64,000 nucleotides of DNA from Candidatus Kapaibacterium sp. (lineage in GTDB: Bacteria; Bacteroidota; Ignavibacteria; Kapaibacteriales; UBA2268): assembly GCA_963665665.1 (NCBI GenBank), contig OY762428.1:3013200-3077199 (forward strand). Direction: 5' to 3'. Below are positions 28,997 through 57,197 of this stretch, piece by piece (within the stretch, counting starts at the first letter, position 1; every line of letters begins with the position of its first letter). The notes beneath the pieces are model-generated. The model ran no database searches, was not told the origin of the DNA, and saw nothing but the letters and a program-made list of their open reading frames with translations. The position numbers and the translations under genes are program-made.

Positions 28997-29073
28997 TGGG
29001 GCGAGCGACGCGATTTGAACGCGCGACCACCAGAGCCACAATCTGGTGCTCTACCGACTGAGCTACGCCCGCC
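28997..29073 (-). tRNA. tRNA-His (anticodon GTG) with genome-encoded G-1 and CCA
   Basis: Reverse complement GGCGGGCGTAGCTCAGTCGGTAGAGCACCAGATTGTGGCTCTGGTGGTCGCGCGTTCAAATCGCGTCGCTCGCCCCA. Cloverleaf with D-arm GCTC/GAGC, anticodon stem CCAGA/TCTGG around loop TTGTGGC, T-arm GCGCG/CGCGT. The extra 5' G pairs with the discriminator C. Confidence 0.9.
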
Positions 29074-30963: not shown

Positions 30964-33900
30964 ATGGTTTCTACAAAATTTCTCAGAAGTTTAATGGCGA
31001 TAGCAATTTTTGCAGTTATTGCCATTAGCGGCGCAAAAGCACAGCTTTTAACCGATTATACGGTTAGTGAGTATGACGGTGTTTACACACCGATTTCCGG
31101 TATCGGTGCCGGAAATGGTGATGACCGTTCTTATCGTATTGATCTACCATTTATTTTTAATTTTGATGAACAGGAAATAACCTGGGTACAGGTTGGTACT
31201 AACGGGTGGATGTCCCTGAACAAAAGTTACGGTACATGGTATCCTGCTTCCCCTACAACATCAACCAATACAATTGGTTTCTATTCAGCTGACCTTTACA
31301 CAGTTGGCATGATAGAATATGAGGTACAGGGCTCAGCTCCGAATCGCGTAATGGTTATCCAGTGGAGAAATCAAAACAACTACTCTCCAAGGGTTCATTT
31401 GTGTGATTGGCAGATAAAACTCTACGAAACAACAGGCAGATTTGATATTATTTGGGGTAGTCCTTCAGCTGCTATGGGCGACAGGACTGGTGGCTTCTTT
31501 GTTACCGGCGGTTCAACAACGCGCTATATTAACATTCAGCCGGGAAATCCTTCAACATTCTATTATAGTAATGTTAATCCTAATACCACACAATGGATGA
31601 GGAATCCTTACGCTGATAATATCCATGTAGGTAAGACATATTCATTTACAACATATCCTGCACTGATGGGTGCTTTTCCTGCACAGGATGCTATCCTTCG
31701 CAGGGGAACAATCGTAAATGATGAAAACAAACCCGGCGTTGTTATGGAAAACAACGAGATGGACGGGGTTTATATCAATTATTCAATTGAAGGCCCTTTG
31801 CCTGCAAGCAACCCGCAGTACAGAACAGTTTATACAGCAACAGTTGAAGGCGATGATACTGACTTTGACGTACCTGTTTATAATAATGGCAGAACTAATT
31901 TCACGCATGCCACAGGTTTTGTAGCAAGAACAACACCTGACAATAACGGTGATCTTGATCTTCTGACAAATGAACTGAATATTCCAGGTGGTACTTATAA
32001 AGTAAGAGCACAGATGAGCATTCCTGAAGTTGGCTTTACACAGGAACTTGCAGACCAGACATTTATTATTGCTCTTGAAAATGACCTTGCAATCAACAGG
32101 ATAATTTCTCCAAAACCTAAAGACGAAAAGAAATATCCACTTTCAACAGGACGCATCCGCGTGCAGTGCAGAGTTCAGAATTACGGTATCAATGATGTTA
32201 CTGCATTCGGCGCTGTAGCAAGAATTTATAAAGATGACGAACAGGTTTATGAACAGGAAGTAGAATGGACATCAACAGACCCTATGAGCACAGGTGAATA
32301 TGTTGATGTAAACTTTCCCGATTACCGTCCGTTCGAAACAGGCGATTTCGATATAGTTTTTGAAGTAACAATGGTAGGCGTATTAGACAGAGAGCTTTCT
32401 AATAACCGCTGGCCTAAAACAGGCGACCATTACTGGTTCGAAGTTGCTCACGAAATAGAAGCAGAAGCATTGGATATTATTGAACCTGCTGGTGAAGTAT
32501 TCGTTGGCCGACCGGTTAAACCTCTGGCAAAATTCCAGAACAACGGTGTATCTGATATTTCTGACATCGACGCTGAAATGGTTATTACTAATTCAGACGG
32601 CGATGTTGTTTACAGAAGCCCGATTATCATTCAGGATATCCCCCAGGGAAGGTCAAACAAAGTAATAGCTGACTTTGATGATTTCGTTCCCCCGGCAGCA
32701 GGCGAATATACAGCATGTATTACAATTACATCTGACGACGACCCTGTAACAGACAACAATTCGATATGCGAAGATTTCTCGGTTGTTGAAGCCCTCAGCG
32801 GAATTTATACAATTGGTACTCTCAATGAAGGTAATGTCAGGAACTTCCTTACATTTGAAAGAGCACTTGATCAGCTCTATCGTCGCGGTATGACTGGCCC
32901 TGTAACATTCGAGCTTACAGATGCCGTTTATAATATCGGTTCACTTGATTATACTAATCAGCCCGCAATCGACATGAGCTCTACAATTGTCGGCCTCAGT
33001 GAAGACCAGCCGATCATGTTTAAACCTTCAAGGCAGCGTGCCGTTTACCGTGCAGGTGTTAAAATCAACATGGTATCCGCAAACGGTATTGGTATTTACA
33101 TGGGACAGAACATGGAACCCAGTAATCCAAACGCACCTGTGCATATAGTTAGATCAAGTAATAAGAAAAACTATTCCAACTTCCCGGGATTTGTAACATT
33201 TGACGGCGGTGCTAACAAAGCATTCCAGTTCTCTATCGACAGTGATGAAGATTTCAGGACTGTATTCTACCTGGCACAGGGTGCTTCAAACGTTACTATC
33301 AAGAACTGTATCATCAGGGGTGATTATAACACTACACCTTCATTTAATGCAGACCTTCCGAAGATGGTATTCAACTCTGCACAGAGCCAGTTCCTTTATG
33401 AAGATGATATTCGCTCTGCCGAAACATACAGTGCAGGTATCCTGCTCAGGAGTACTCCTCCGACAACAAAAGAAACAGCCAACCTGAACGCACTTGATTC
33501 ACTGTTCAACCAGAACAACGTAATCGAGAACAACGAGATCACAGGCTTTGGTTATGGTATAGCATCAATGGGTATGGGCGTACTGTTCAAACAGGAAGCC
33601 AACAACTTCGTAAAATACTACAACATGAATAACGAGTATAAAGACAATGTTATCCATAATGTAAGCCGCGCAGCTATTTTCCTTGGTTCCGAGCAGAACT
33701 CAACGATCAAAAACAACAGGATATATGAAATCAACGGCGTAAGCGGCATGGACGCAGCCGGCATTATCCTTGGCGGCGACGCAGAACGCGACTGGTTCGG
33801 TTACAACGTAATCGACATCACAGTTGACGGCAACGAAATAAGCGAAATCGACGGCGACTACGAGATCCGCGGAATCAAAGTATCCCAGGATCCTATCGTA

Positions 33901-40197: not shown

Positions 40198-41697
40198 TTA
40201 ATTTTTTCTTTTATCAATGGCAAAAACTTTTTCCGTAATTCTTGATAATCTTACGAAAGGCAGGCCAATTAATAAATACACCGCAGCTATCATTATTCCG
40301 ATACCGAAGTAATCGTAGTATGTGGCAGCAAGCCTGCTGTATAGTTTTGTCAATTCAACTAAAGTTATGACGGACACAAGGGAAGAATCTTTCAACAAAG
40401 AAATAAAATCATTTGTAATTGGTGGTATAACCAGCCTGACAGCCTGCGGAAGGATAATGTGCCTGAGGGATTGATATTTTGTCATTCCAAGGGAAATAGC
40501 CGCTTCGGTTTGCCCTCTTGGTACAGAATTCAGCCCTGCACGATAATTCTCAGCCTCGTAGGCTGCATAGTTCAGCCCAAGCCCGATAACTGCCGCCATA
40601 AATGGAGATAATTTGATTCCTATTGTAGGGAGTGCGTAAAATATAAATATCAATTGAATCAGAAGCGGGGTTCCCCTGATAATTTCGATATAGCTAACAG
40701 CAAGCCAGGAGAAAGGAGCCGGGGCATATACACGGGTTAATGCAAGGAACAGTCCGAATAGTATAGCAAGGATCATGGCAAAAATCGAAATCCCGAGTGT
40801 CATCAATGCAGCTTCCCCGATCAAAGGAAGAAAGCCAATGTATTGATGCAATTTTACACTGAAATTTACTTCGTTTCCCTGTGATGCAACAAACCTGTCA
40901 AATTCTGTAGGTGAAATATCAACTTCATCATGATCGTTGAAAAATAATTTCATCTTATAATTCCACAGGTTCCATTTGCCGTAGATTTCCCTTAGCTGTC
41001 CGCTGGCTGCAAGTTCATATATGGCTTTGTTTACTTTGTTAAGTAGAACTGTGTCTTCCTTTCGAAGTGCAATCCCATATTCTACATCACCAACGGGCGG
41101 CCCTACAAGTTCAAATTCAGGATTCCAGGAGCAATAATAAAGTGCTATGGGAGCATCAACAAGAGCTATGTTTATTCTGCCGTTAATCATATCGGTGAAG
41201 GCATTCACTTCGCCTTCATAGGTAAGAACATCAATATCACCTTCATCAAGAAGTATTCTTTCGGCAAGTGAATTTTTTAGGCATCCCACGGTTTGGCCAT
41301 TAAGGTCATCGAGGGAATTTATTCCCTGTGTCCCCCTGACAACAACGATTTGCTCGTATGTTTTGTAGTAGGGTATCGAAAAACTTACTACTTTTTCTCT
41401 GTCGCCCGTTATTTCCAATCCGTTCATGGCAGCATCGTAATTCCCGCTTTGCAATCCCGGAATTAGTCCGTCCCACTGATTTTGGATAAATACAGCTTTC
41501 ATACCCATTTGCGCGGCAATAGCATTAGCAATGTCAACTTCAAAACCAATATTCTTAGATAATATCGAAGGGTCCTGAAAAATATAAGGTGCGTTCCCTT
41601 CTGCGTCGGCAGCCCAGCGGAACTCAGGCAACTCTTGTGATTTTAATGAAGAAATTGCAAAAAGTGTCAGGAATAATATTTTCAGGATTGAATTCAT
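40198..41697 (-). CDS. Amino-acid ABC transporter: fused periplasmic substrate-binding domain plus permease
   Basis: N-terminal SBP_bac_3-like domain with signal peptide. C-terminal polar amino-acid permease domain containing the EAA-like block ...GMTKYQSLRHIILPQA. Confidence 0.75.
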   Translation of the reverse strand: MNSILKILFLTLFAISSLKSQELPEFRWAADAEGNAPYIFQDPSILSKNIGFEVDIANAIAAQMGMKAVFIQNQWDGLIPGLQSGNYDAAMNGLEITGDREKVVSFSIPYYKTYEQIVVVRGTQGINSLDDLNGQTVGCLKNSLAERILLDEGDIDVLTYEGEVNAFTDMINGRINIALVDAPIALYYCSWNPEFELVGPPVGDVEYGIALRKEDTVLLNKVNKAIYELAASGQLREIYGKWNLWNYKMKLFFNDHDEVDISPTEFDRFVASQGNEVNFSVKLHQYIGFLPLIGEAALMTLGISIFAMILAILFGLFLALTRVYAPAPFSWLAVSYIEIIRGTPLLIQLIFIFYALPTIGIKLSPFMAAVIGLGLNYAAYEAENYRAGLNSVPRGQTEAAISLGMTKYQSLRHIILPQAVRLVIPPITNDFISLLKDSSLVSVITLVELTKLYSRLAATYYDYFGIGIMIAAVYLLIGLPFVRLSRITEKVFAIDKRKN

Positions 41698-42838: not shown

Positions 42839-43072
42839 ATGAGTTTTAAATACAAAAAACCAGAATTGAAAGTATTAAATGATGATTCGATGTTATTTTG
42901 TAATAACGGAACATCGGCTCAAGCTGTCGGGCCGTCATATCAATGTATATCAGGAACTTCAGTCAATCCGGTACTTTGCACCGACGGTAGCACAAATGAC
43001 GGGGTTTTTGTTCAGTGCGACAGCGGTGGATCTGCATTTGGTTTTGCCTGCGCAGTCGGCGGAACAGATTAA
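42839..43072 (+). CDS. RiPP precursor peptide 1 (77 aa; Cys/Gly/Ser/Thr-rich core with five C-x-x-G motifs)
   Basis: MSFKYKKPELKVLNDDSMLFCNNGTSAQA leader-like N-terminus, then a core of CNNGT/CISGT/CTDGS/CDSGG/CAVGG. Followed by a hairpin terminator, and lies next to a PqqD-like gene and two rSAM-SPASM genes. Confidence 0.65.
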   Translation: MSFKYKKPELKVLNDDSMLFCNNGTSAQAVGPSYQCISGTSVNPVLCTDGSTNDGVFVQCDSGGSAFGFACAVGGTD

Positions 43073-43167
43073 TCAGCTTTGATCATTGTAATAAATATTG
43101 ACCAATGTTATAAAATATTTTGTGTATAGATAATAAAACAGCGTGAAAAAAGTTTGAAATTAAGAAT

Positions 43168-43206
43168 AAAGCCGTATTTGAATGTTACGGCTATTTTTTT
43201 TTTTAT
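43168..43206 (+). terminator. Rho-independent terminator/attenuator immediately after precursor peptide 1
   Basis: aaagccgtatttgaatgttacggctattttttttttt: stem agccgta/tacggct plus an 11-nt T-tract. Confidence 0.7.
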
Positions 43207-43260
43207 TAAATTATATGTTTAAAAAGTAGTAATGTATTTACAACAATAAATGAGGCAGAA

Positions 43261-43545
43261 ATGGCAAACAACCCTATTGCAAACCCGATGATAGTTCACA
43301 GGGTGGAGGATGATGACTGGGCGGTTCTATTTGATCCCGACGCTAACGAAACTTACGCTCTCGATCCTGTTAGTTCTTTTGTGTGGCAATTATTGGACGG
43401 TAAGCACAGCAAGGAAGAAATTCTGGCAAAACTGGAAAAAGAATGTGAGGATGGAATTCCCGAAGAAGCTGCAACAGACCTGGATGAGTTTCTTACAGAA
43501 CTGGAAGCAAAAGCTCTTGTTGGATACGAGCAGGCAATTGGTTAA
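43261..43545 (+). CDS. PqqD-family peptide chaperone (RiPP recognition element, stand-alone)
   Basis: 94 aa; block ETYALDPVSSFVWQLLDGKHSKEEILAKL...ATDLDEFLTELEAKAL matches the PqqD pattern (..ylLN.tg..iW.lldG..t..ei...l.....v.......dv..fl..L...gl). Confidence 0.75.
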   Translation: MANNPIANPMIVHRVEDDDWAVLFDPDANETYALDPVSSFVWQLLDGKHSKEEILAKLEKECEDGIPEEAATDLDEFLTELEAKALVGYEQAIG

Positions 43546-43547
43546 TT

Positions 43548-44681
43548 ATGAAAATTGAACGCACTCCTAAAAGCCTTGACCTTGAAATTACAAGCAAGTG
43601 CAACCTAAGGTGTTCTTATTGCTCTCACTTCAATAGCGAAGGTGATACCGATACCGATTTAAGCACTGATGAATGGCTGCAATTCTTCGAAGAGCTGAAA
43701 GAATGCAACGTTATGGATGTTACTCTTTCTGGTGGCGAACCATTCATGAGAAAAGATATCCGTATCCTGCTTGACGGGATAATAAAAAATAGAATGAGGT
43801 TCGGATTTCTTACGAATGGTATTCTTTTTAATGATGACCTGGCTGAATATATTAAAACAACAGGCCGATGCAACAGTATCCAGGTTTCAATCGACGGCCC
43901 CGGCCCTGAAATTCATGATGCTTCGCGTGGTAAGGGAAGCTTTGAAAAAGCAATCGCCGGGCTTAAAACGATAATGAGACACGGCCTTCCTGCCACGGTA
44001 CGTGTTACGATAAACAAGCACAACTATAAAAAACTTCCTGAAATAGCTGAAATGTTGCTTGAAGAAGTAGGGCTTCATTCATTTTCAACAAACGCAGCTT
44101 CTCATCTCGGGCTTTGCCGTACTAATAAAGACGATGTTCAGCTTGGTGTGGAAGAATATACTGAATCAATGCAGACGATATTTACACTTGTTGAAAAGTA
44201 TGGCAACAGGATAAATGCCCAGGCAGGCCCTCTTGCATCAGGCAAGCAATGGATGGAAATGGAAAAAGCCCGGCAGAATAATTTAGATAATCTTCCCGGA
44301 TGCGGATATCTTACAAGTTGTGGCGGGATTTTCGCAAAAATGGCAATTCAGGCTGACGGATCAATGGTACCGTGTTCGCAGTTGCCGCACATGAAACTTG
44401 GTAAGGTCAACGTGGACAGCCTTGCAGATGTATGGCTGAATCATCCTGAGCTTAAACGCCTGCGTGAAAGAAGAGATATTCCGCTTGGTACATTTGACTC
44501 ATGCAAGGGCTGTTCGTATATACCTTATTGCAGGGGCGGATGCCCGGCACTGGCATATACCCTGAACGGAGATGAGAATGTTCCTTCTCCGGAATCATGC
44601 TACAGGAATTTTCTTGCTGCGGGTGGAAGATTGCCGGTTTTAGATGATAACGAGCCATTTTTTAGTCCGGGATGTTGCTGA
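43548..44681 (+). CDS. Radical SAM / SPASM-domain peptide-modifying enzyme 1
   Basis: CNLRCSYC (CxxxCxxC) near N-terminus. C-terminal auxiliary-cluster Cys array CGYLTSCGG...C...CKGCSYIPYCRGGCPA typical of SPASM. 3 nt after the PqqD-like gene. Confidence 0.85.
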   Translation: MKIERTPKSLDLEITSKCNLRCSYCSHFNSEGDTDTDLSTDEWLQFFEELKECNVMDVTLSGGEPFMRKDIRILLDGIIKNRMRFGFLTNGILFNDDLAEYIKTTGRCNSIQVSIDGPGPEIHDASRGKGSFEKAIAGLKTIMRHGLPATVRVTINKHNYKKLPEIAEMLLEEVGLHSFSTNAASHLGLCRTNKDDVQLGVEEYTESMQTIFTLVEKYGNRINAQAGPLASGKQWMEMEKARQNNLDNLPGCGYLTSCGGIFAKMAIQADGSMVPCSQLPHMKLGKVNVDSLADVWLNHPELKRLRERRDIPLGTFDSCKGCSYIPYCRGGCPALAYTLNGDENVPSPESCYRNFLAAGGRLPVLDDNEPFFSPGCC

Positions 44682-44827
44682 TGAAAATAAAATTTAGCAT
44701 CACTATCTTAAATATATACCAAACATAAAATACGTTTCCTGGATAGTTTGGTTTAACAGTGGATTAAATATAAATATTGTTTTTTGAATTTGTTCATTAC
44801 AGTAAAAATTTTGAAAATTGGATTATT

Positions 44828-45103
44828 ATGAAAAAGAAATTTAGCTATACCAGACCATCGCTATCATCATTGTCAGATGAAATATCTCAATTCTGTAATG
44901 TAGGAACAGGAGCAACTTTAGCTGATACTCCTGCTATTCAGTGTACTGTTGGTGGGGATGCACAGCTGATTTGTGTTGCCGGTACCGGTTTTTCCAGTAC
45001 GTATCCACATTGCGCTAATGGCCCTGCTGATTCAAAACTTGCATGTTCAACAGGATCAGGGGACACTAATCCCAGCTGTAATGTTGGCAATTCACCAGTT
45101 TAA
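44828..45103 (+). CDS. RiPP precursor peptide 2 (91 aa; six C-x-x-G motifs)
   Basis: MKKKFSYTRPSLSSLSDEISQF leader, then CNVGTG/CTVGGD/CVAGTG/CANGPA/CSTGSG/CNVGNS. Sits between the two rSAM genes. Confidence 0.65.
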   Translation: MKKKFSYTRPSLSSLSDEISQFCNVGTGATLADTPAIQCTVGGDAQLICVAGTGFSSTYPHCANGPADSKLACSTGSGDTNPSCNVGNSPV

Positions 45104-45130
45104 TATATTAACAATAAATACTTAATAATT

Positions 45131-46261
45131 ATGAGCGAAGAAAAAAATACAGAATTTAAAGTACCGGAATGCGGTTATCCGCTGAGCCAGATATATTTTT
45201 ACATGACTGAAGGATGCAACCTGAAATGCCGTCACTGCTGGATAGAACCGAAATTCCAGGCTTCCGGCAATAGTAAATGGCCCTCTATTGAGTTTGACCT
45301 TTTCAAGGATATATGCTATCAGGGCAGGGAACTTGGAATGAACTCAGTTAAACTAACCGGCGGGGAGCCACTGATAAATCCTGATATTGACAAAATACTT
45401 GATTTCATTTATGAGGAGAAGTTCAGGCTGACAATTGAAACTAACGGCATCGAACTGACACCTGAAATTTGTGAAAAGATTGCCCGGTGTGAAGGCACTT
45501 TTGTTTCAATCAGCCTTGATGGCTCAACAGCAGAAGAACACGAATGGGTTCGCGGTGTTCCGGGTTGTTTCGAAGCAGCATTGCAAGGCGCACGGAATCT
45601 TGTAGCCGTGGGAATAAGGCCGCAGTTTATAATGTCGATAATGAAAAGGAATGCACACCAGATAGAAGATATTATTGAACTTGCCCGGAAAGAAAACGCC
45701 GAGTCGGTTAAATACAACCTGGTAACACCTACTGCACGTGGGGAGCAAATGCACGAGGCTGGCGAAACTCTGTCGATTGAAGAATTGATCCGTATTGGTA
45801 AATGGGTGGAAGATGAATTGCAGCCAAAGTACAAAGATGTCAGGCTTCACTATTCTCATCCGGTTGCTTTCAAGCCTTTTGGCAAAATGTTTGAAAGACC
45901 ATTGGGACGTTGCGGTATATTCGGTATTATCGGAGTGCTCGGAAATGGTAAATATGCTCTTTGCGGTATCGGTGAAACTGTCCCTGAACTTGTTTTCGGC
46001 GACGCGAGAAAAGATAAACTCGCAGATGTTTGGAATAATAACCAGGTACTTAATGATATTCGTAAAGGCTTACCAAAAGATTTGAATGGTATTTGCGGGG
46101 ATTGTCTCGTTAAAAACAAATGCCTTGGTTCCTGTGTAGCCATGAATTATTATCGTCATCACGATCTGTTTGCTCCTTTCTGGTATTGCGAGGAAGCACT
46201 TAAAGCCGGACTTTTCCCCAAAACCAGGATCAAGCCGGGATCGCCATTTGAAAAGGTATAA
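45131..46261 (+). CDS. Radical SAM / SPASM-domain peptide-modifying enzyme 2
   Basis: CNLKCRHC motif. C-terminal CGIFG...C....CGDCLVKNKCLGSCVA SPASM-like cysteine array. Confidence 0.85.
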   Translation: MSEEKNTEFKVPECGYPLSQIYFYMTEGCNLKCRHCWIEPKFQASGNSKWPSIEFDLFKDICYQGRELGMNSVKLTGGEPLINPDIDKILDFIYEEKFRLTIETNGIELTPEICEKIARCEGTFVSISLDGSTAEEHEWVRGVPGCFEAALQGARNLVAVGIRPQFIMSIMKRNAHQIEDIIELARKENAESVKYNLVTPTARGEQMHEAGETLSIEELIRIGKWVEDELQPKYKDVRLHYSHPVAFKPFGKMFERPLGRCGIFGIIGVLGNGKYALCGIGETVPELVFGDARKDKLADVWNNNQVLNDIRKGLPKDLNGICGDCLVKNKCLGSCVAMNYYRHHDLFAPFWYCEEALKAGLFPKTRIKPGSPFEKV

Positions 46262-46273
46262 AACAAATACTAA

Positions 46274-48082
46274 ATGCGTTTATGGTATAAATATCTGAAG
46301 CAGGGGCTTTCCCGTAAGCTGCCTGTCGATAAGTTCAATGAAGAATCGAACTACGGCAGGCTCAGGGATAATATTAAACTATTATTTCCTCCGATAAAAA
46401 AACACTGGAAGGCCGGGCTGATATCAATGTTTGTTCTGGTTCTGTCATCAGTCCTGACTTATCCCCTGCCAATGATAAACAAATATTTTATCGATGACGT
46501 TTTGCTGAAAAAGAGGATTGACCTTGTTGTTCCGGTAGTATTACTATTAACGGGAATTGGCCTTGCTTCGTATCTGACGGGCGTGTTGAAAGGCTTTTAT
46601 AATCAGCGATTCACACAGGAAGTGATACTCGATCTGCAAAAGACAATGATCGATAAGGTTTTGTCACTCCCAAAATTCTTCTTTGATAAAAATCGATCCG
46701 GCTATCTTATGTCAAGGATATCCGGAGATGTTCACGGTGTAAACTGGTTTCTTTCCGGCCCTATGGTTCAAATGTTTCTCCAGGCTATGAAATTCATTGG
46801 TGGTGTTTATTTCCTGATATTCCTGGAATGGCGTCTGGCAATTCCGGTTATTCTTACCTTGCCGATACCATTTTTCGCAATGCGTTATTTTGCTAAGCGG
46901 TCTTATATTATGAGCCATTATACCAGCGAAATGAATGCAAAAACAAACGCCAGCCTGCATGAAACTGTTAATACTGTTTCTCTTATTAAATCTTTTGCCA
47001 ACGAGAAAAAAGCATCAAAGTCCCTATTCAGGATGTTGAGAAAAAAAGTTAACATCGGGTATGAACAAAACAGTATGAATTCTCTTAGCAGTTTGATCAA
47101 CCAGCTAATGCCACAGGTTGCCAAATTTGCTGTTATGCTTTTTGGCGCTTACTGGGTAATCAGCGGCGAGTGGCAATTGGGATCTCTTATCGCTTTCCAA
47201 TCATACTTATCCTACGTGTACGGGCCGGTAAATCAGCTTTCTTCCAGTATGAACCAATTGCAGACAGCCCGGGCAACAATGGACAGGGTTGCTACTATTC
47301 TCGGAATGGATTCCGAAGAGAATACTGACAGCGGAGATGAAATTACGAAACTGACCGGAAGCATAGAATTTGATAATGTAAGCTTCGGGTATGATAAGAA
47401 AAAACCTGTTTTATCTAATCTTTCCTTTAATATAAAAGCAGGGGAACAATGGGCTGTGATCGGCCCAAGCGGTATTGGTAAAACGACGCTTATCAGCCTG
47501 CTTTTAAAATTTTATTCCACTGATTCCGGAGATATTCTATTTGATGATAAGTCCTGTAAAGATATCAATGTGCGTTCTTTAAGAAGAAGGCTTGGCTATG
47601 TGGCACAATCAACGAGCCTGCAAACAGGAACAATTCTGAAAAATCTGAAATACGGAAATCCCGGAGCAAGTGTAGAAGATATAGTTAAAGCAGCAAAGAT
47701 TGCCGGAATTCATGAATTTATTGAAGAACTGCCCGAAAAATATAATACCCATATAGAAGAAGGCGGCGCTAACCTTTCCGAAGGCCAGAAACAAAGGCTT
47801 TCTATTGCAAGAGCTCTTGTTCTGAATCCTGATATTTATATACTGGATGAACCAACTGCTTCAGTAGATAACCTGACTGAACAGTCAATTTACAAAGCTC
47901 TTCCTGAAACAATAAAAAATAAGACAACAATCACTATAGCACACAGGTTAAATACTATTAAATCAGCAGAAAAAATATTATTTTTGAGAAAGAATAAAAT
48001 TCCTCTTATCGGTTCACATAATGAATTGAAAGGCGATGATGATTACATGGAATTTTTCGAAACTATAAATAATTGTAACTGA
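46274..48082 (+). CDS. ABC exporter, fused permease-ATPase (no C39 peptidase domain)
   Basis: Six predicted TM helices, then Walker A GPSGIGKTT, signature LSEGQKQRLSIARAL, Walker B ILDEPTASVD. Confidence 0.85.
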   Translation: MRLWYKYLKQGLSRKLPVDKFNEESNYGRLRDNIKLLFPPIKKHWKAGLISMFVLVLSSVLTYPLPMINKYFIDDVLLKKRIDLVVPVVLLLTGIGLASYLTGVLKGFYNQRFTQEVILDLQKTMIDKVLSLPKFFFDKNRSGYLMSRISGDVHGVNWFLSGPMVQMFLQAMKFIGGVYFLIFLEWRLAIPVILTLPIPFFAMRYFAKRSYIMSHYTSEMNAKTNASLHETVNTVSLIKSFANEKKASKSLFRMLRKKVNIGYEQNSMNSLSSLINQLMPQVAKFAVMLFGAYWVISGEWQLGSLIAFQSYLSYVYGPVNQLSSSMNQLQTARATMDRVATILGMDSEENTDSGDEITKLTGSIEFDNVSFGYDKKKPVLSNLSFNIKAGEQWAVIGPSGIGKTTLISLLLKFYSTDSGDILFDDKSCKDINVRSLRRRLGYVAQSTSLQTGTILKNLKYGNPGASVEDIVKAAKIAGIHEFIEELPEKYNTHIEEGGANLSEGQKQRLSIARALVLNPDIYILDEPTASVDNLTEQSIYKALPETIKNKTTITIAHRLNTIKSAEKILFLRKNKIPLIGSHNELKGDDDYMEFFETINNCN

Positions 48083-48085
48083 CAG

Positions 48086-48961
48086 ATGCAGCAGGCAAAA
48101 CAAATAGAACAATTTTATCTGAAACTTTCGGATGGCAGCAAATGGGGATTCAATTCAGCTCCTGAATTGAAAGAATGGTTTAGCATATTTGCCAGAATAA
48201 TGTCTTTGAAAAAAGATAACTCTGATGTGGATTATTTGTTTAATATCCGGCCCAAAAACGGAAGGGAAATTCCTGCCGGAGTTGATGAAAGCTGGGATTC
48301 TTTCAGGCAAAGCGGGGCATATACTATATGGAGCAAAAAAGGGGAAAAACAGTTTTTAATTGAAATAAACAAAGAGTTTATCGACCACCCCGAGATTAGA
48401 GTGATAAATATGTGGTCAACATTGAAGGCTCTATATAAATTTTATGCTGAGAACGGTGGAGGCCCGGTTCATAGCGGAATGGCAGCCCTGAATGGCAAAG
48501 CTATACTGATAGCTGCCCCGGGGGGTACCGGGAAATCAACATCCATACGCAGGCTGCCGGATTATTGGAAAAAAATGTGCGATGACACAACCCTGATAGT
48601 AAAAAAAGATGATAATTTCTTTGTTCATCCCATGCCTACATGGAGTGACCATCTATGGGAGCATAATTTTACTACTTTCGATACTTCAAGGGGATTCCCA
48701 TTAGCAGCTGTTTTCTTTCTGAAGCAGTCCGGCACTGACAAAGTTACCCCGATTTCCAGGCCTGAAGGCATTCAGTTGCTTTTAAGTTCAGTTAAACAGG
48801 TTTTTCAAACTTATGTTGATAAGTTGAAGGATAATGAAAAGTCTGAAATGGCTATGAAACTGTTTGATAACACCTGTAATATTGTTGGAAAAACACCATG
48901 CTACAGGCTTGAAGCTACATTGAACGGGGATTTCTGGGAAGAAATTGAAAAGGTATTATAG
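48086..48961 (+). CDS. HPr-kinase/phosphorylase C-terminal-domain-like P-loop protein
   Basis: HSGMAALNGKAILIAAPGGTGKSTSIRRL....DDTTLIV parallels the HprK P-loop region (H...G.GVLI.G.SG.GKSE.AL.L...G..LV.DD). Confidence 0.55.
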   Translation: MQQAKQIEQFYLKLSDGSKWGFNSAPELKEWFSIFARIMSLKKDNSDVDYLFNIRPKNGREIPAGVDESWDSFRQSGAYTIWSKKGEKQFLIEINKEFIDHPEIRVINMWSTLKALYKFYAENGGGPVHSGMAALNGKAILIAAPGGTGKSTSIRRLPDYWKKMCDDTTLIVKKDDNFFVHPMPTWSDHLWEHNFTTFDTSRGFPLAAVFFLKQSGTDKVTPISRPEGIQLLLSSVKQVFQTYVDKLKDNEKSEMAMKLFDNTCNIVGKTPCYRLEATLNGDFWEEIEKVL

Positions 48962-49560
48962 TGGAAAAGCACAAGCCGCAATATAATACAAGTGTCGGGC
49001 CAAGCATGTACCCGACAATGAAAAGCGGCGATGCATATATCCTTAAAGAAATATCTTCTATTGATGAAATATGCCGGGGAGATGTAATTGTTTTTCCCCA
49101 CCCTGACGAACCAATTAATGTTGTTCACAGAATTATTAGGATTTATCCCGAAGGTTTTCAAACCAGGGGAGATAATAATAACCGTAAAGATCCCTATATT
49201 GTGAAAAAGGATGATATTATCGGTGTGGTGGGCAAGGTTATCAGGAAAAATAAAAGATATACTATTCATGGCGGAAATGCGGGATTATTCATCCACAGGA
49301 TGGCTTGGGCCAGGAAATATTCCCGGCCCTATATTGTAAAGCCACTGAAGTTTTTATTGAATTTGCTGATCAGATCAAAAATATTCTTCATTTTCGGAAA
49401 TTTCTTTTCAACTTCAATCACAAAAATTAACCGAATGGGTTCCGAGCAATTTATCTTAAGTGTAAATAAAAAACCGGTTGGAAAAAAAGAATCAAAGGAA
49501 TCTGCGTGGATAATTAGTTTCCCTTATAGTTTGTTTATTAATCCGAAGAAATTACCATGA
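48961..49560 (+). CDS. S26 signal-peptidase-like serine peptidase (SipW/ER-type Ser-His), candidate leader peptidase
   Basis: GPSMYPTMKSGD (SM.PT catalytic Ser box), GDVIVF, and VVHRIIRI (His box of SipW/archaeal-type S26). Stop overlaps start of precursor 3 (ATGA). Confidence 0.6.
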   Translation: MEKHKPQYNTSVGPSMYPTMKSGDAYILKEISSIDEICRGDVIVFPHPDEPINVVHRIIRIYPEGFQTRGDNNNRKDPYIVKKDDIIGVVGKVIRKNKRYTIHGGNAGLFIHRMAWARKYSRPYIVKPLKFLLNLLIRSKIFFIFGNFFSTSITKINRMGSEQFILSVNKKPVGKKESKESAWIISFPYSLFINPKKLP

Positions 49561-49781
49561 AATACCGAAAACCAAAAATATACAGACTTTTCCCATCGAA
49601 AATAGACATAAGCGCCTGTATGGACGGTGAGCAGGCTTCGAGCATGGCCTGCGTATCCGGCCCGGAGGCATCCAGCGGGTGTAAAACCGGGGCTGCTGCC
49701 GGTACGGCATGTAAGGATGGTTCCGCTGCCGGATTCAGTTGCAACAGCGGTGCAGGATTCGAGGAATGGGAAAGGAAGTAA
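49557..49781 (+). CDS. RiPP precursor peptide 3 (74 aa; five C-x-x-G motifs)
   Basis: MKYRKPKIYRLFPSKIDISA leader, then CMDGE/CVSGP/CKTGA/CKDGS/CNSGA at about 10-residue spacing. Start codon overlaps the S26 stop, indicating translational coupling. Confidence 0.65.
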   Translation: MKYRKPKIYRLFPSKIDISACMDGEQASSMACVSGPEASSGCKTGAAAGTACKDGSAAGFSCNSGAGFEEWERK

Positions 49782-49835
49782 ATTGTTTTATAATAATAAC
49801 ATAGTGTATTATTAATCATATAAGGCATTAATAAA

Positions 49836-50615
49836 ATGAAAATATCAATATTAACCGAAAATACAGCAGCGCCTTATTTCCTTGCGGAATTTGGTTTTTC
49901 ATGCTTTATAGAAACAAACGGGAATAATTTTCTTTTTGATTTAGGCGCCACGGACATTTATCTGAAAAATGCCGAAAAACTTGGCATTGATATAGATAAT
50001 TGCAATAATGTTATTCTCAGCCATGGCCACTGGGATCATGGAAACGGCCTTAAATACATTAAGGGAAAAAATCTATTATGTCATCCGGGGGCTTTTCGTA
50101 AAAGATACCACAAAGGTGATGATAATAATATCGGCCTTGAAATGACTAAAGAAGAAATTGAGACAAATTTCTGCCTGACAAGCTCGGCGAAACCATATTA
50201 TATTGATGAAAATATAATTTTCCTTGGAGAAATTCCCAGGCTGAATGATTTTGAATCAAAGGAATCAGATTTTATACTCTCCGACGGAAGCGAGGATTTT
50301 GTAAGTGATGATACCGCCATGGCCATTGTTGAAGACGGCAGGCTAATCATCATTTCCGGGTGCGCCCATTCCGGAATTTGTAATATTATAGAATATGCGC
50401 GTAATATTTCCGGCATTTCGGACGTGAAAGCTGTGCTGGGCGGCTTCCATTTAAAAAATGAAAACCGTCAGTTGGATGAAACAATTAAATATTTTAAAAA
50501 ATTAAATGCAAAGCAGCTTTATCCCTGCCACTGTACTCAATTGCCTGCTATGGCAGCTTTTTATAACAATTTTAAAATTAACAGGATAATGGCAGGAAAC
50601 ACATTGGAAATTTAG
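49836..50615 (+). CDS. MBL-fold metallo-hydrolase
   Basis: LSHGHWDHGNGL (HxHxDH) plus downstream His/Asp; 259 aa. Confidence 0.75.
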   Translation: MKISILTENTAAPYFLAEFGFSCFIETNGNNFLFDLGATDIYLKNAEKLGIDIDNCNNVILSHGHWDHGNGLKYIKGKNLLCHPGAFRKRYHKGDDNNIGLEMTKEEIETNFCLTSSAKPYYIDENIIFLGEIPRLNDFESKESDFILSDGSEDFVSDDTAMAIVEDGRLIIISGCAHSGICNIIEYARNISGISDVKAVLGGFHLKNENRQLDETIKYFKKLNAKQLYPCHCTQLPAMAAFYNNFKINRIMAGNTLEI

Positions 50616-50624
50616 GAAAATAAA

Positions 50625-51482
50625 ATGAAAACATATATTGATTGTATTCCATGCTTTATGAACCAGGCGCTAAGGGCCGGAAGAATATCCACAAGCGATG
50701 ATATAATACTTAAAAAAATAATGGATAACGTAGGCGGGAAGCTGAAAGATGTATCCCTTACCGAAGTACCGCCCCGTTCGGCAATGATCATATACGATGA
50801 AATATTTCGCCAGACGGGAATAGAAGACCCTTACAAAAAAATCAAAAAGGAAAGTATAGACCTTGCTAAAAGTATTCTGGGGCAAATCAGAAATATGGTG
50901 GAATCTGCCCCCGACCCGTTACTTGCTGCCGTAAAAGCAGCAATTGCAGGTAATATTATTGATTTTGGTGCCTGCGAGGATTTTGATATTAAAAAGGATG
51001 TAAAGGCATCTATGGATATGGACTTATCTATAAACGATTATGAGGTTTTCAAAGAAAAAATAAATTATGCACGTACAGTCCTTTACCTTGGGGATAATGC
51101 CGGGGAAACTGTTTTTGACAGGTTGCTAATCGAGAATATTGACGCAAGGGTGGTTTATGCTGTCAGGGAGAAACCTATTATCAATGATGCAGTGATAGAA
51201 GATGCAGTTGATTCCGGCCTGGCCGATATATGCGAGATAATTTCTTCAGGCAGTACTGCTCCTGCAACTATTCTTGAAGAATGTAATGAACGGTTTTTAG
51301 GTCTTTATCACGGCGGAGCTGATATTATCATCAGCAAAGGGCAGGGAAATTACGAGAGTTTATCTGATAGTAACGAAAATATTTTCTTCCTTCTTAAAAC
51401 TAAATGCAGCGTTATTGCCCGCGACCTTGATACCGAAACAGGTGCACTTGTATTGAAAGCCGGTAAAAATTATGATTTGTAA
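50625..51482 (+). CDS. DUF89 (ARMT1-like/damage-control phosphatase family) protein
   Basis: N-terminal YIDCIPCF..QAL and overall length/pattern resemble PF01937 members; weakly supported. Confidence 0.45.
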   Translation: MKTYIDCIPCFMNQALRAGRISTSDDIILKKIMDNVGGKLKDVSLTEVPPRSAMIIYDEIFRQTGIEDPYKKIKKESIDLAKSILGQIRNMVESAPDPLLAAVKAAIAGNIIDFGACEDFDIKKDVKASMDMDLSINDYEVFKEKINYARTVLYLGDNAGETVFDRLLIENIDARVVYAVREKPIINDAVIEDAVDSGLADICEIISSGSTAPATILEECNERFLGLYHGGADIIISKGQGNYESLSDSNENIFFLLKTKCSVIARDLDTETGALVLKAGKNYDL

Positions 51483-53141: not shown

Positions 53142-56100
53142 TTAAATTTTTGGCAGAGTGAATGAGAACTCCGATCCTTTTCCGGGCTTGCTTTTTACAG
53201 ATATTGTTCCGCCGTTTTTCTCCACAAACTCTTTGCAAAGTATTAAACCTAAACCCGTTCCTTTTTCATTATTTGTTCCCGGAGTAGAGGAGTTTTTATC
53301 AATCCTGAACAGATCATCGATTCTCTCTTCTTCAATACCAATTCCACTGTCGCAGATGATTATTTCAATGAATTTATCATTTTCTTTGTTAGCAATTTCA
53401 ATTGTACCGCCTTCGGGGGTAAATTTTATTGCATTTGACAGCAGGTTGCGGAAAACAGTATTGATCATTGCTTTATCGAAATAAGCAAAAAGATTCTTGT
53501 CTGATTTATCAATTATTTCAATTTTTTTATTATCAATATTGACTTGTAATAATTTACGAACATTTTCAATTGAAAATCTCATATCTGCTATCAGTGGATG
53601 GAATTCAAGCCTGCCGGTCTGGGAGCGGGACCATTGAAGTAAATTTTCCAAAAGGTTCAGCGTCTGCTTTGAAGAATCATACAGGATATTGATGAAATTT
53701 TTCCTTGCGTCACTTGTAATATCTTCATAATTCTGTAATAGTATCTCGGAAATATTCATAAGCCCGCCAAGGGGATTTTTCAGGTCATGAGCGATAATTG
53801 AAAAGAATTTGTCCTTCATTGCATTTGATTCCTGAAGGCCTGCTTCGGAATCGCTTATTATCCTGTTCAGTTCAGCAAGCCTTATTGCTTCTTCTTCAAT
53901 TGTCTGGCGTGATATAAACAGTTCTTCGTTTAGTTTTTCCAACTCGTCCTGGGTACGTTTTCTTTCTTCATTTTCAAACCGCAGCTCTTCCATTGCATCC
54001 TGTAGCTGTGCAGTACGGTCCCTGACTTTTATTTCCAGGTCTTTATTCAATTCGTGCAGCTTATTCTCAATTTTTTTCTTATCGGAAATGTCAACAAATG
54101 AAGCAAGAAGTTTTATCGGTTTCCCTTTGCTGTCCCGCACAAAGTTAACTGAAACCATTACGTCAAAAGTGCTTCCGTCTTTCCGTATTGCCACGGATTC
54201 TACTGTTCCGCCTCCCTGGTTCAAATGCCCAAGAACCCTGTCGGTTTCTCCTAATTGGCCAAAATATTTAATATTTTTGCCGATGATCTCCGCAATATCA
54301 TCATAACCCCAAAGATTGAGATATGCCTGGTTTACATATTCTATAGTGCCGTCCAGGCTGGCAATACCGAGGCCGAAAACGGCAGATTCGATAGCAGAGT
54401 TCTTTATATGCAATGATTCTTCTGCTTTTTTTAGTGGTGTAATATCCATTGTTACGCCTATAATGGATAATACTTTGCCATCTTTATTTTTTAATGGATA
54501 AGCCGATGTAACAGTATGAATTTTCTGGCCGTTTGAGTTCATCATGGTTACTTCAAAGGATTGGCCTGCTTTTGTCTGCAAAATTCTTGCAATGAAGTTT
54601 TCTACTTTGTTGTAATTCCCCCTGTGAAATTCTGATAATTTTTTATTAATAACGGCATTCTTCTTAAGCCCGAATATGTTTTCTGCCCCGGGCGAGAATT
54701 CACTAATAACGGGGCCTCCATCTTTAAAATCAGCAATCAGGAATCCTACAGTATTAGCAGCTTCAAAAATTGAACGCAGTTTGGCTTCGTTGGCTTCCAG
54801 TGCATCGCGGGCAATTTTGGTTTCTGTAATGTCGTCTAGAATGGTTGCAAGCAGGTTATTGTGGAATTTGAAAATAGAAATTTTGAAGTATTTTACCGGG
54901 TTTTTCAAAGGAAATCCCATTACCAGTTTTATTCCGCCATCAGAACTATTTAATTTATTAACAATATCTGCAAATGGAAAAGTGCTTTTAGGATTTAATT
55001 CTGAAACTTTTCGCCCAACAAAATCTGTTCTTTTTATTCCATAAATAGATCTGAAACTTTCAATAAATAGTTTATTTGCATTACGGATAATTGTATCCAC
55101 AACTTCATCGTCTTCATTTTTAACAATTTCATGAATAGCACAGGCAGAATTCATATTATCAAAAAGCTGGATAAATCGCTCGTTACTTTTTTGCAGTTCC
55201 TTTTCAGATTCTATACGGGCTGTAATGTCTCTTGATGTTATTATGATACCATTTATCGGATCAACATCCAGCAGGTTGTTTGCAACAGCTTCATGCCAGG
55301 TATAGGTGCCGTCCTTATGCATTAGCCTGAAAACAGTAGGAACCAGTTTATTTGTTCCGCTAAGAACTTCGTTAAATTCCCGGATAGAATGCTCTTTATC
55401 GTCAGGATGAACCAAATCCCACATATTGACTTCATTAAGTTCATTTTCTGAATAACCAAGAATCTGGCATGACGAAGGAGTTTCGAATTTTATATTTACA
55501 TTTTCATCAACAATCCATACAATATCGGACATATTCGCAAGGATAGACCTGAACTTTAACTCATTTTGCTCAAGAGCTTTCTCAACTTTTTTTACATCAG
55601 AAATATCGAATATAACTCCTCTGAATCCTACGGGTTTTGAATCCTTGATAATAACATCTGAATGAATTGCAACAGGAAAAGTCGATCCGTCCTTTCTTAG
55701 GGCAATGTATTCAGATGCCTTAGACCTTTGGCCCATAGCAATTTTCCGCATATTTTGAACCGCGCGTTCCCTGTGCTCGGGTATTATCATATCAATAGCG
55801 TTGATCGAATCTATATCAACTTCATCAGGCTTGTAGCCGAATTTATCACGGGCAGCTTTATTGCCGTAAGATAAATTTCCTTTCAAATCCGATTCATATA
55901 TTATCTGTGGCAGCAGGTCGGAAAGCTGGCGGAATCGTTCTTCGCTTTCTTTCAGTTTGTTTTTGGATTTTATTCTGGATATTGCAATTGCCAGCATATA
56001 AGCTATTGATTCCAGAAATTTCATTTTTTTATCAGTCAATGTGTCAGCATCGTTAGCGGCAACATTTAACGAACCATATATTTTGCCCGGACTTAGTTTT

Positions 56101-57197
56101 ATCGGGATTGTTCCAACAAAGTTTAACCCGTTTTCTGAAAATAATTCAGGTAACTCAACTTTGCTTTCAGAAATACTTCCGAATACTGATTTCCCCGACT
56201 TTACTAATTTAAAATTCAAAGATTCGGAATCGTAACTTTTTAATTTCTCAACAATTTCATCATCCAGGCCGGAGTAATGAACCAGCTCAAGATACTTTGA
56301 ATCGTTATCAAAAAGATATATGCCAGCGTTATTTATTCCTAATATCTTTTTGGTGTAGTTTACCGATAAGCTTGATATTTCTTTAATAGAGTCAGCTTTA
56401 CTGAGCTTTTGGGACAGCTCGTTTTGAAGAACTAAAAGTTTTTCATTCTCTTTTTTCACGGAGATATCTTTGATAGTACCAACAACAGCAATTTTTTCGT
56501 GGTTTTTGATAATACCGATATTTAAAATAATGTGAATATAGCCGGGTTTGTGTTTATGCTTTATATTGAATTCATACTCATTTGGTACAGGTTCGCCAGC
56601 CAGCCTTTTTGCATAATTTTCCGATACCATATCAACATCTTCCGGAGCAATTATCTCCCTGAAATCAATACCAATAATTTCATTTGCCGAAAAACCGGTG
56701 ATTTTTTCAAAGGAGCTGTTTACATAAAGGAATTTGGAATCCTGAAGAAAGAATGCTCCGTCGCCAATATTTTCCAGCAGCCTGATATAATCTTCGTTAT
56801 CAAGAAATCCTCCCTGAACTTCAGTTTTATCAATATCTTTTATTAAAATACCGATATAATCCCTGTTTTCCTCCGAACTTGCCTGAATGATAAGCGAACA
56901 TTTAATTTTTTTGCCGTCTTTACGTCGGCATTCAGCATATAAAATATTTTTACCGGTCAGCCTGTCATCAGGAATAACTTCGGGAATTTCAAATCCGGGG
57001 AAGTAGTTCTCAAAAGGTTTGTTTTTAACATTTTTTACTTCCTCACCAATAAGATACAGGGCTGAACTATTCAAATTCAGAATTTTGTCGGTGTGACGCT
57101 CTACAATGAACAGGGGGTCAGATATATGGTGAAATAAGGGGAAATATTTAATATAATCCCGGGATAATTTATCAGTTGTTTGTTCAATGTTGTCCAT
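53142..57197 (-). CDS. Multi-sensor (PAS/GAF) histidine kinase, 1351 aa
   Basis: Multiple PAS/PAC blocks and a GAF-like segment. C-terminal coiled coil, HisKA (HDLKNPLGG) and HATPase_c (GTGLGLILCKEF...GGTISVKS). Confidence 0.85.
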   Translation of the reverse strand: MDNIEQTTDKLSRDYIKYFPLFHHISDPLFIVERHTDKILNLNSSALYLIGEEVKNVKNKPFENYFPGFEIPEVIPDDRLTGKNILYAECRRKDGKKIKCSLIIQASSEENRDYIGILIKDIDKTEVQGGFLDNEDYIRLLENIGDGAFFLQDSKFLYVNSSFEKITGFSANEIIGIDFREIIAPEDVDMVSENYAKRLAGEPVPNEYEFNIKHKHKPGYIHIILNIGIIKNHEKIAVVGTIKDISVKKENEKLLVLQNELSQKLSKADSIKEISSLSVNYTKKILGINNAGIYLFDNDSKYLELVHYSGLDDEIVEKLKSYDSESLNFKLVKSGKSVFGSISESKVELPELFSENGLNFVGTIPIKLSPGKIYGSLNVAANDADTLTDKKMKFLESIAYMLAIAISRIKSKNKLKESEERFRQLSDLLPQIIYESDLKGNLSYGNKAARDKFGYKPDEVDIDSINAIDMIIPEHRERAVQNMRKIAMGQRSKASEYIALRKDGSTFPVAIHSDVIIKDSKPVGFRGVIFDISDVKKVEKALEQNELKFRSILANMSDIVWIVDENVNIKFETPSSCQILGYSENELNEVNMWDLVHPDDKEHSIREFNEVLSGTNKLVPTVFRLMHKDGTYTWHEAVANNLLDVDPINGIIITSRDITARIESEKELQKSNERFIQLFDNMNSACAIHEIVKNEDDEVVDTIIRNANKLFIESFRSIYGIKRTDFVGRKVSELNPKSTFPFADIVNKLNSSDGGIKLVMGFPLKNPVKYFKISIFKFHNNLLATILDDITETKIARDALEANEAKLRSIFEAANTVGFLIADFKDGGPVISEFSPGAENIFGLKKNAVINKKLSEFHRGNYNKVENFIARILQTKAGQSFEVTMMNSNGQKIHTVTSAYPLKNKDGKVLSIIGVTMDITPLKKAEESLHIKNSAIESAVFGLGIASLDGTIEYVNQAYLNLWGYDDIAEIIGKNIKYFGQLGETDRVLGHLNQGGGTVESVAIRKDGSTFDVMVSVNFVRDSKGKPIKLLASFVDISDKKKIENKLHELNKDLEIKVRDRTAQLQDAMEELRFENEERKRTQDELEKLNEELFISRQTIEEEAIRLAELNRIISDSEAGLQESNAMKDKFFSIIAHDLKNPLGGLMNISEILLQNYEDITSDARKNFINILYDSSKQTLNLLENLLQWSRSQTGRLEFHPLIADMRFSIENVRKLLQVNIDNKKIEIIDKSDKNLFAYFDKAMINTVFRNLLSNAIKFTPEGGTIEIANKENDKFIEIIICDSGIGIEEERIDDLFRIDKNSSTPGTNNEKGTGLGLILCKEFVEKNGGTISVKSKPGKGSEFSFTLPKI

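Follow-up and report, generated by a model that had tools for sequence, protein, structure and literature searches.

A SynChlorMet (Scm) cassette with three ScmA-like precursors in a Candidatus Kapaibacterium genome

What is made by a compact row of genes that combines three small Cys-rich peptides with two radical S-adenosylmethionine (rSAM) enzymes, and is it a system of its own? We asked this of a locus at 42839-51482 on the + strand of a 64-kb stretch of a Candidatus Kapaibacterium sp. genome (assembly GCA_963665665.1, contig OY762428.1, positions 3,013,200 to 3,077,199), here called the window. A sequence-only reading had proposed a cluster for a peptide made on ribosomes and modified post-translationally (RiPP), with Cys-rich repeat precursors, a separate recognition protein of the PqqD type, a pair of complete rSAM/SPASM enzymes, an exporter and a peptidase that could remove leaders, and had taken it for an undescribed system. 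Our searches support this composition; the claim of novelty did not hold. As judged by profile matches and gene order, the locus is a SynChlorMet (Scm) cassette, a member of a family already catalogued in TIGRFAMs/NCBIfam, with three paralogous ScmA-like precursors and with ScmC, ScmE and ScmF proteins that score above the curated cut-offs.

Identity of the cassette and its precursor peptides

Five NCBIfam models define the Scm cassette (ScmA TIGR04252, ScmC TIGR04249, ScmD TIGR04248, ScmE TIGR04250 and ScmF TIGR04251). The locus reaches or nearly reaches four of them and misses that of the precursor. ScmE (43548..44681, 377 residues) scores 546.8 bits against a cut-off of 400 in a full-length match (1-358 of 358), and ScmF (45131..46261, 376 residues) scores 519.5 bits against 400, also over its full length. 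ScmC (48086..48961, 291 residues), a P-loop protein with a PEPCK/HprK-like fold and a putative peptide kinase, scores 227 bits against 125, and the Pfam family PF27840 (ScmC family) is precomputed for the identical protein. ScmD (43261..43545, 94 residues) is a stand-alone member of the PqqD family (PF05402, 58 bits); its best NCBIfam match is TIGR04248 at 85.8 bits, under the cut-off of 100, and its position and spacing are those of family loci. An MsbA-like ATP-binding cassette (ABC) exporter (46274..48082, 602 residues; ABC_membrane and ABC_tran only, with no C39 peptidase domain) and an S26 Ser/His peptidase (48961..49560, 199 residues; TIGR02228, 70.7 bits), which is a putative leader peptidase, complete the protein-coding partners of the precursors.

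The three small open reading frames (ORFs) are preA (42839..43072, 77 residues, leader FKYKKPELKVL), preB (44828..45103, 91 residues, leader FSYTRPSLSSL) and preC (49557..49781, 74 residues, leader MKYRKPKIYRL), with five, six and five C-x-x-G units in their cores. TIGR04252, whose cut-off is 35 bits, matched none of the three window peptides even at E <= 10, so the proposal that their motif is unlike described families stands at the level of database matches, although the system itself is catalogued. We attribute the miss to the narrowness of the model, which spans 49 positions, matches 11 of 40 aligned family members and gives 15 and 27 bits to two precursors from other loci that sit between ScmF and ScmC (L037:9648-9884 and L044:9657-9848). 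Many ScmA peptides may be left unnamed in public annotation for the same reason.

We made a profile from 71 peptides that all come from other genomes; it matched only preC, preB and preA among the 627 six-frame segments of the window, with hidden Markov model E-values of 1.3e-18, 7.7e-12 and 5.9e-11, respectively. The three peptides can be aligned with one another: Y, P and L are invariant in their leaders, and five Cys/Gly pairs are shared. We extended the comparison with a scan of GTDB representative genomes, which gave 151 ScmC relatives; 80 of their loci were fetched and are the basis for all locus counts. Peptides of this kind turned up in 55-59 of the 80 loci, first with a regular expression and then with a profile, and the profile of alignment A3 gave 89 matches at E <= 1e-3 in 59 of them, with no match to reversed decoys at E <= 0.01. 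The precursors lie in the gap between ScmF and ScmC in 24 cases, and directly upstream of ScmC in 38 of 71 + strand contexts. The small ORFs of the window thus have homologous peptides in syntenic loci, and we assign all three as genuine ScmA-type precursors.

Across the family, the leader follows the consensus K-Y-E-K-P-x-L-[IV]-x-L, in which P is found in 100% of peptides, Y/W/F in 98% and L in 77%. About ten more residues lead to a small-x-small junction, which is followed by 3-19 repeats (5-6 in the window). The first Cys lies 16-20 residues past the leader Tyr in 75 of 81 peptides; relative to this Cys, position -4 is small in 66% (A/G/S) and position -2 in 86% (G/A/S/T), a junction that is weak in the window's own three peptides. 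The core repeat has about ten residues, C-x-x-G-x-x-A-x-x-x, with a modal Cys-Cys spacing of 10 (149 cases, against 70 of 11 and 47 of 9), and the tail past the last Cys is 6-8 residues long in 64 of 71 peptides. The core is hypervariable in sequence, in repeat number (3-19 Cys) and in copies per locus (1-6). In the window, the C-x-x-G motif is iterated 5-6 times, as had been read from the sequence, and all 16 core Cys of preA, preB and preC have Gly at +3, which is far beyond chance, because the core Gly frequency is about 21%.

The individual precursors of the window have recognizable counterparts. Peptides that look similar to preB are found in L010 and L012, and relatives of preC stand directly after the S26 gene in L001-L003, L005 and L007, the best being 62% identical (A3); small, uncompared ORFs take the preC position after S26 in L082 and L083. 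At L012:9299-9847 and L013:10897-11445, the S26 ORF runs in frame, with no Met, into a preC-type peptide (…PPPKYEKPGLIP…ACMNGNEASGNACVSGPEASGGC…), so that either the peptidase is fused to its substrate there or an internal start has gone unrecognised. Other loci carry much larger sets. The four precursors of L054 (10888-12487, 18493-18921), once their starts are trimmed, are 137-142 residues long and contain 19-21 Cys, some of them as CC pairs. L026 encodes at least six precursors alongside three ScmC paralogues, and in L066 about eight precursors are accompanied by additional rSAM genes.

The eleven co-directional genes at 42839-51482 that had been read from the sequence are confirmed by the ORF list and by an independent gene caller, which returned the same ORFs, the small three included, on contig ENA ERZ21869602 ctg93839l (164.5 kb). 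The proposed spacers of 0-55 nt describe most junctions, which range from overlaps to 54 nt, but not two longer ones of 188 and 146 nt. ScmD, the stand-alone PqqD-like gene, lies 2 nt upstream of ScmE, and the second rSAM/SPASM gene, ScmF, directly follows a precursor gene, 27 nt after preB, both in the order proposed. The remaining gaps are 12 nt from ScmF to the exporter and 3 nt from the exporter to ScmC; ScmC and the S26 gene overlap by 1 nt and the S26 gene and preC by an ATGA, while 54 nt separate preC from the gene for a metallo-beta-lactamase (MBL)-fold hydrolase, and 9 nt that gene from the DUF89 gene. The 146-nt spacer is that between ScmE and preB, measured to the ATG at 44828. The 188-nt spacer between preA and ScmD contains, at 43170..43204 on the + strand, a hairpin with a 7-bp inner stem followed by a T11 run (dG -13.9 kcal/mol, z -3.65, none of 200 shuffles as stable), which looks like an intrinsic terminator or attenuator placed between precursor and enzyme genes, a function proposed from its sequence. 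This hairpin was found manually; the counts of the promoter/terminator scan were at or near chance and were not used. With nine genes and three precursors in a compact operon, the Scm locus of the window is suited to heterologous expression.

Family spread, gene order and neighbouring genes

We found ScmC in 94 clusters at 90% identity with a word-indexed search, all with PF27840 and several named ScmC by their sources, and in 933 representative clusters at 50% identity with an exhaustive search (E <= 1e-30). The 80 loci come from Victivallales/Lentisphaerota, Desulfobacterota, Nitrospirota, Omnitrophota, Saganbacteria, Aminicenantes, Chlorobium, Methanocella and others. The Scm family is thus large and is spread over many anaerobic phyla and one archaeal genus, yet our literature searches, whose coverage is incomplete, returned no experimental paper on it. 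The closest relatives of the window's ScmC are those of Victivallales/Lentisphaerota, at 44-45% identity.

Gene order recurs across the 80 loci as ScmD-ScmE-ScmF-[small ORF]-ScmC-S26, often followed by the ABC exporter. Writing a for a precursor, D, E, F and C for the Scm proteins, P for the S26 peptidase and T for the ABC exporter, the common order is D-E-F-a-C-P, whereas the window has a-D-E-a-F-T-C-P-a, which follows the variant D-E-F-T-C-P-a of the Victivallales type. The comparison of gene content across loci shows a conserved core of ScmD-ScmE-ScmF-ScmA-ScmC-S26 peptidase, often with the ABC exporter, which lies in or beside the cassette in 14 of the 31 loci that we regard as complete (at least 8 kb on both sides of ScmC). 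An uncharacterised nucleotidyltransferase of about 410 residues, PF14907, is encoded in 33 of the 80 Scm loci (for instance L003:4162-5400 and L036:13443-14696); we looked for it in the window and found none. Among the 31 complete loci, those without ScmE or ScmF nearby are L006, L013, L017, L021, L028, L029, L032, L045, L055, L061 and L076, among which L021 reads PqqD-a-C-P beside carB and L006 is ScmC with a peptide alone.

The HprK-like protein, the S26 peptidase, the MBL hydrolase and the DUF89 protein had all been described as unusual companions for a RiPP cluster. Pfam and NCBIfam profile searches confirmed these domains, together with those of the exporter, but the first two proteins are conserved parts of the core rather than unusual companions. 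The MBL-fold hydrolase (49836-50615, +; PF00753) and the DUF89/ARMT1-like phosphatase (50625-51482, +; PF01937, E 1e-62) have no homologues beside the cassette in the 80 loci, save one unlinked MBL match on the opposite strand in L035. They are also absent from L082 and L083, the nearest two relatives from metagenomes, in which unrelated genes follow the cassette. We therefore rejected the two genes as cassette members, as they are not conserved with it; they are probably co-directional neighbours. The terminator scan showed no terminator between preC and the MBL gene, so that the two genes could be co-transcribed with the cassette. The DUF89 protein resembles damage-control phosphatases (NF040824, 198.7 bits, under the cut-off of 440), and finding a phosphatase beside a protein of kinase fold is suggestive, but other loci do not preserve the pairing.

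Elsewhere in the window, a fused solute-binding-protein/permease ABC component (40198-41697, -) lies upstream of the cluster on the opposite strand, and a PAS-rich sensor kinase of 1351 residues (53142-57197, -) lies directly downstream of the cluster region; the cassette of L083 also adjoins a PAS/HD protein. A second PAS-rich sensor kinase (22454-28594, -) is a hybrid of 2046 residues with at least eight PAS domains as well as GAF and receiver domains, and a single tRNA-His (GTG) is found at 28997-29072 (-). Two proteins with C-terminal sorting domains of the type IX secretion system (one of 1845 residues) and a GWxTD-domain protein are encoded at 71-1465, 30964-36501 and 6285-7595 (-). These sorting domains and the GWxTD protein suggest a host of the FCB (Fibrobacteres-Chlorobi-Bacteroidetes) group, whereas the nearest relatives of ScmC come from Victivallales. 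Identical preC, preA and S26 proteins, together with close preB and ScmC variants that fall in the same 90%-identity clusters, are encoded on an NCBI contig of 5,458,198 bp, so a genome that is nearly complete and has this cluster exists.

A favoured maturation pathway and its alternatives

ScmE and ScmF both have an intact CX3CX2C site and a seven-Cys SPASM domain, and neither has a RiPP recognition element (RRE) domain of its own. C18/C22/C25 and the seven SPASM Cys of ScmE are conserved in 38 homologues, and C29/C33/C36 and the seven SPASM Cys of ScmF in 44. The nearest solved structures of the pair are those of the peptide cross-linkers SkfB, PqqE, CteB and SuiB, with the sactisynthase SkfB nearest to ScmE. 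At the level of sequence families, every model of a characterised rSAM enzyme (PqqE, MftC, AhbD/NirJ, SkfB, AlbA, StsB, PapB and WgkB) scores 70-135 bits, far under its cut-off. This holds for sactisynthases (SkfB 96.9 bits against 300, StsB 104.5 against 625, AlbA 72.5 against 850), for the ranthipeptide enzyme PapB (101.5 against 340), where no SCIFF or PapA-type precursor model matched either, and for the PQQ and mycofactocin enzymes (PqqE 111.7 against 381, MftC 114 against 265), for which the window contains no cognate precursor or partner genes. The sequence-only reading had named sulfatase and cofactor maturases as the identities that would speak against a RiPP, and the two rSAM proteins are neither.

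From the repeats themselves we would expect one thioether per repeat, with a link from the Cys sulfur to the C-alpha of Gly(+3) favoured, because this Gly is the only near-universal partner. The same link is favoured because four-residue sactionine rings are known from streptosactin, which has sequential, unnested rings of this size (PMC9389541), and because StsB makes Cys-Gly sactionines (PMC10288494). A lanthionine-like route, in which a kinase and the elimination of Ser/Thr would supply the acceptor, was rejected, as no more than 63% of units, and 10 of the 16 in the window, have Ser/Thr at +4 or +5.

ScmC is a phosphotransferase-fold (PEPCK/HprK) protein with putative kinase activity. The catalytic elements of HprK/P are a His, a P-loop and a DD pair, and the assignment of the fold follows from the ScmC family profile, which aligns the invariant His129, the GxGKS/T loop (G149, K150, T152) and D166/D167 with them (E 0.0066). 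The AlphaFold2 model of ScmC is confident, with a predicted local distance difference test score of 94.5 and a predicted template modelling score of 0.91. ScmC does not fall within bona fide HprK/P or within HprK-related kinase A (TIGR04352, cut-off 200), which it matches at E 0.002. In lasso-peptide clusters, HPr-kinase homologues phosphorylate the precursor, and a neighbouring nucleotidyltransferase then adds a hexose (PMC8498205).

The S26 peptidase follows ScmC in most loci and has the motifs G-x-S-M-x-P, H-R and G-D-N...D, with S15, H56, D71 and D77 invariant. Its best PDB relatives are SEC11A/SEC11C, Ser/His catalytic subunits (E 5e-13). The catalytic Ser has a median position of 21 and is preceded by a hydrophobic segment in none of 47 homologues, from which we predict a soluble enzyme. 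The conserved C-terminal module, about 50 residues long (residues ~150-199, …SFxRxxGxExQLxxGxxxIGR…WxIRRPFRLFIDE…LP) gave no detectable relatives in our searches, and hhalign rejected the idea that it is RRE- or PqqD-like (probability < 1%). The small-x-small junction of the precursors fits the -3/-1 rule of the S26 class, if the cut leaves one residue before the first Cys.

These parts can be assembled into a pathway. ScmD would bind the leader and deliver the peptide to ScmE, as PqqD does for PqqE, and ScmE and ScmF would join each Cys sulfur to a carbon inside its own repeat, favourably the C-alpha of Gly(+3). The product would be a string of five to six small, four-residue sactionine rings, as in type-2 sactipeptides. 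ScmC would phosphorylate the peptide using a nucleotide, and in other genomes the PF14907 nucleotidyltransferase could decorate the phosphorylated peptide further. In the cytoplasm, the soluble S26 peptidase would cleave the leader away, probably so that one residue stays ahead of the first Cys, and the MsbA-like ABC pump would export the product. We consider this pathway as a whole (a RiPP cassette with Cys-Gly(+3) rings, ScmC as a kinase, S26 cleavage and ABC export) about equally likely to be right or wrong. A bolder version is that Scm is an undescribed RiPP class, in which decapeptide "beads-on-a-string" of Cys-Gly(+3) rings are built by two cooperating rSAM enzymes, phosphorylated by ScmC and decorated further in many genomes, with ScmC-ScmA as the true core and three products from one enzyme set; this we hold only tentatively, as a possibility more doubtful than not.

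Several points weigh against the pathway. The scores of ScmE and ScmF lie far below the cut-offs of the sactisynthases and ranthisynthases PapB, StsB and SkfB. In 11 of the 31 complete loci neither enzyme is encoded nearby, while most of these keep ScmA, S26 or ScmD, so the rSAM step may not be the universal core. The family-wide share of Gly at +3 (79.5-81% of about 475 Cys; 79.5% of 478 in the logo set) is somewhat inflated outside the window, as the peptide sets were seeded with a C..G regular expression. The ScmA C-terminus is Ser in only 8 of 71 peptides, unlike the substrates of the lasso kinases, so the residue targeted by ScmC, if any, would differ from the lasso case. preA (…SMLFC) and preB (…ISQFC) do not have a small-x-small junction, and the cut site one residue before the first Cys is weakly indicated for these two. 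Finally, we infer, rather than observe, which atom accepts the sulfur, how ScmE and ScmF share the work and what ScmC acts on.

The alternative that survives best keeps the same cassette and changes the bond: ScmE and ScmF would form non-alpha, ranthipeptide-like thioethers, from Cys to a side-chain carbon (beta or gamma) of a Ser, Thr, Asn or Asp at +4 or +5. rSAM enzymes are known to form beta- and gamma-thioethers (PMC9389541). At +4, S (20%), T (18%) and N (11%) are enriched, as are S and T at +5; ScmE is a weak match of PapB (101 bits), and the PDB relatives of the pair include CteB. However, Gly or Ala occupies +4 in about 27% of units, and S/T/N/D/E at +4 accounts for 59% of family units and 9 of 16 in the window, where Gly(+3) is found in all 16; the PapB score is also far under its cut-off. 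We regard this chemistry as unlikely.

A different emphasis would make ScmC the class-defining enzyme, acting on ScmA by phosphorylation or nucleotide-dependent activation, possibly followed by PF14907 decoration, with the rSAM enzymes as accessories in part of the family. The frequent position of ScmA immediately upstream of ScmC (38 of 71 contexts) fits this view, as do the 11 complete loci with ScmC and neither rSAM gene, 6 of which keep an ScmA-type peptide (in L006, ScmC and the peptide are all there is), and the presence of PF14907 in 33 of 80 loci, given the precedent of the lasso kinase and nucleotidyltransferase. In the window, however, both rSAM genes are intact and interleaved with the precursors, and no core residues other than Cys and Gly are invariant, neither of them a target of kinases; genomes that seem to be without the rSAM genes may also encode them elsewhere. 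On balance we find an ScmC-centred class quite improbable.

The sactionine-type pathway also has to be set against an intracellular role, in which the peptide would be a Cys-rich cofactor, metal-binding or redox peptide similar to PQQ or mycofactocin, with its Cys as free thiols or ligands, rather than a secreted bioactive compound. The PqqD/PqqE-like pair, the spread of the family across anaerobes, the soluble and predicted cytoplasmic peptidase, and an ABC exporter in only 14 of the 31 complete loci are consistent with such a role. The hypervariable cores, unlike the invariant cores of cofactor precursors, and the dedicated exporter inside the window's operon argue against it, and we think it very unlikely. 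A last reading, prompted by three peptides with no Pfam or NCBIfam match (TIGR04252 included), takes the small ORFs for products of chance and the cluster for unrelated genes that happen to adjoin. It is already refuted by the precursor profile searches and the conserved gene order: an independent profile picks exactly these three ORFs from 64 kb, and ScmC is flanked by homologous peptides in 59 of 80 loci, drawn from many phyla, with no decoy match at E <= 0.01. Its probability is negligible.

Beyond what the database models provide, the analysis defines the precursor broadly, places the S26 peptidase in the core of the cassette, assigns a PEPCK/HprK fold to ScmC and, in the favoured pathway, offers a testable hypothesis for the chemistry.

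Comparison with known systems

Among the known systems close to the favoured pathway are the type-2 sactipeptides (streptosactin/GggB and QmpB), in which an rSAM/SPASM enzyme likewise acts on a Cys core, and the ring of streptosactin has the same size as one formed within C-x-x-G would have. Streptosactin has 14 residues and two rings, both the work of a single rSAM enzyme, whereas Scm precursors have 5-6 (up to 19) repeats and two rSAM enzymes; Scm also adds a separate PqqD protein, a kinase-fold protein and an S26 peptidase, and the likeness comes with no sequence-level membership. StsA/StsB provide the precedent for Cys-Gly sactionines, and StsB is a weak match of both ScmE (104 bits) and ScmF (87 bits). 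The StsA core, CxCxCx4GxGxG with hairpin connectivity, differs from the decapeptide repeats of Scm, and both scores are far under the StsB cut-off of 625.

Among ranthipeptides, freyrasin (PapA/PapB) and CteA/CteB also iterate a short Cys motif whose units are cross-linked locally by one rSAM/SPASM enzyme. The freyrasin repeat is CX3D. Its partner residue is thus Asp at +4, whereas the proposed partner in Scm is Gly at +3. The PQQ pathway resembles Scm in having a small stand-alone PqqD directly upstream of an rSAM/SPASM enzyme that has no RRE of its own; it differs in that the cassette has no PqqA, PqqB or PqqC, and the Scm precursors have Cys/Gly repeats instead of the invariant Glu...Tyr pair.

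Outside rSAM chemistry, the phosphorylated and phosphoglycosylated lasso peptides (paeninodin kinase, pseudomycoidin nucleotidyltransferase) also have an HPr-kinase-fold enzyme in a RiPP cluster. The pairing of such an enzyme with a nucleotidyltransferase recurs in the 33 Scm loci with PF14907 and not in the window, and Scm has no lasso cyclase or protease. The S26 peptidase shares its Ser/His pair and the GDN...D box with the SEC11/SipW-type signal peptidases and with the maturation protease of nickel superoxide dismutase, whose model it matches weakly. It differs from the SEC11/SipW type in having no membrane anchor before the catalytic Ser and in its extra conserved C-terminal module of about 50 residues.

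Compared with its own family, the window has a Cys-rich precursor near ScmC and an S26 peptidase after ScmC, as in most family loci. It differs in lacking the PF14907 nucleotidyltransferase and in carrying three precursors from divergent subfamilies, none of them detected by TIGR04252, a multi-precursor arrangement that it shares with L010 and L012.

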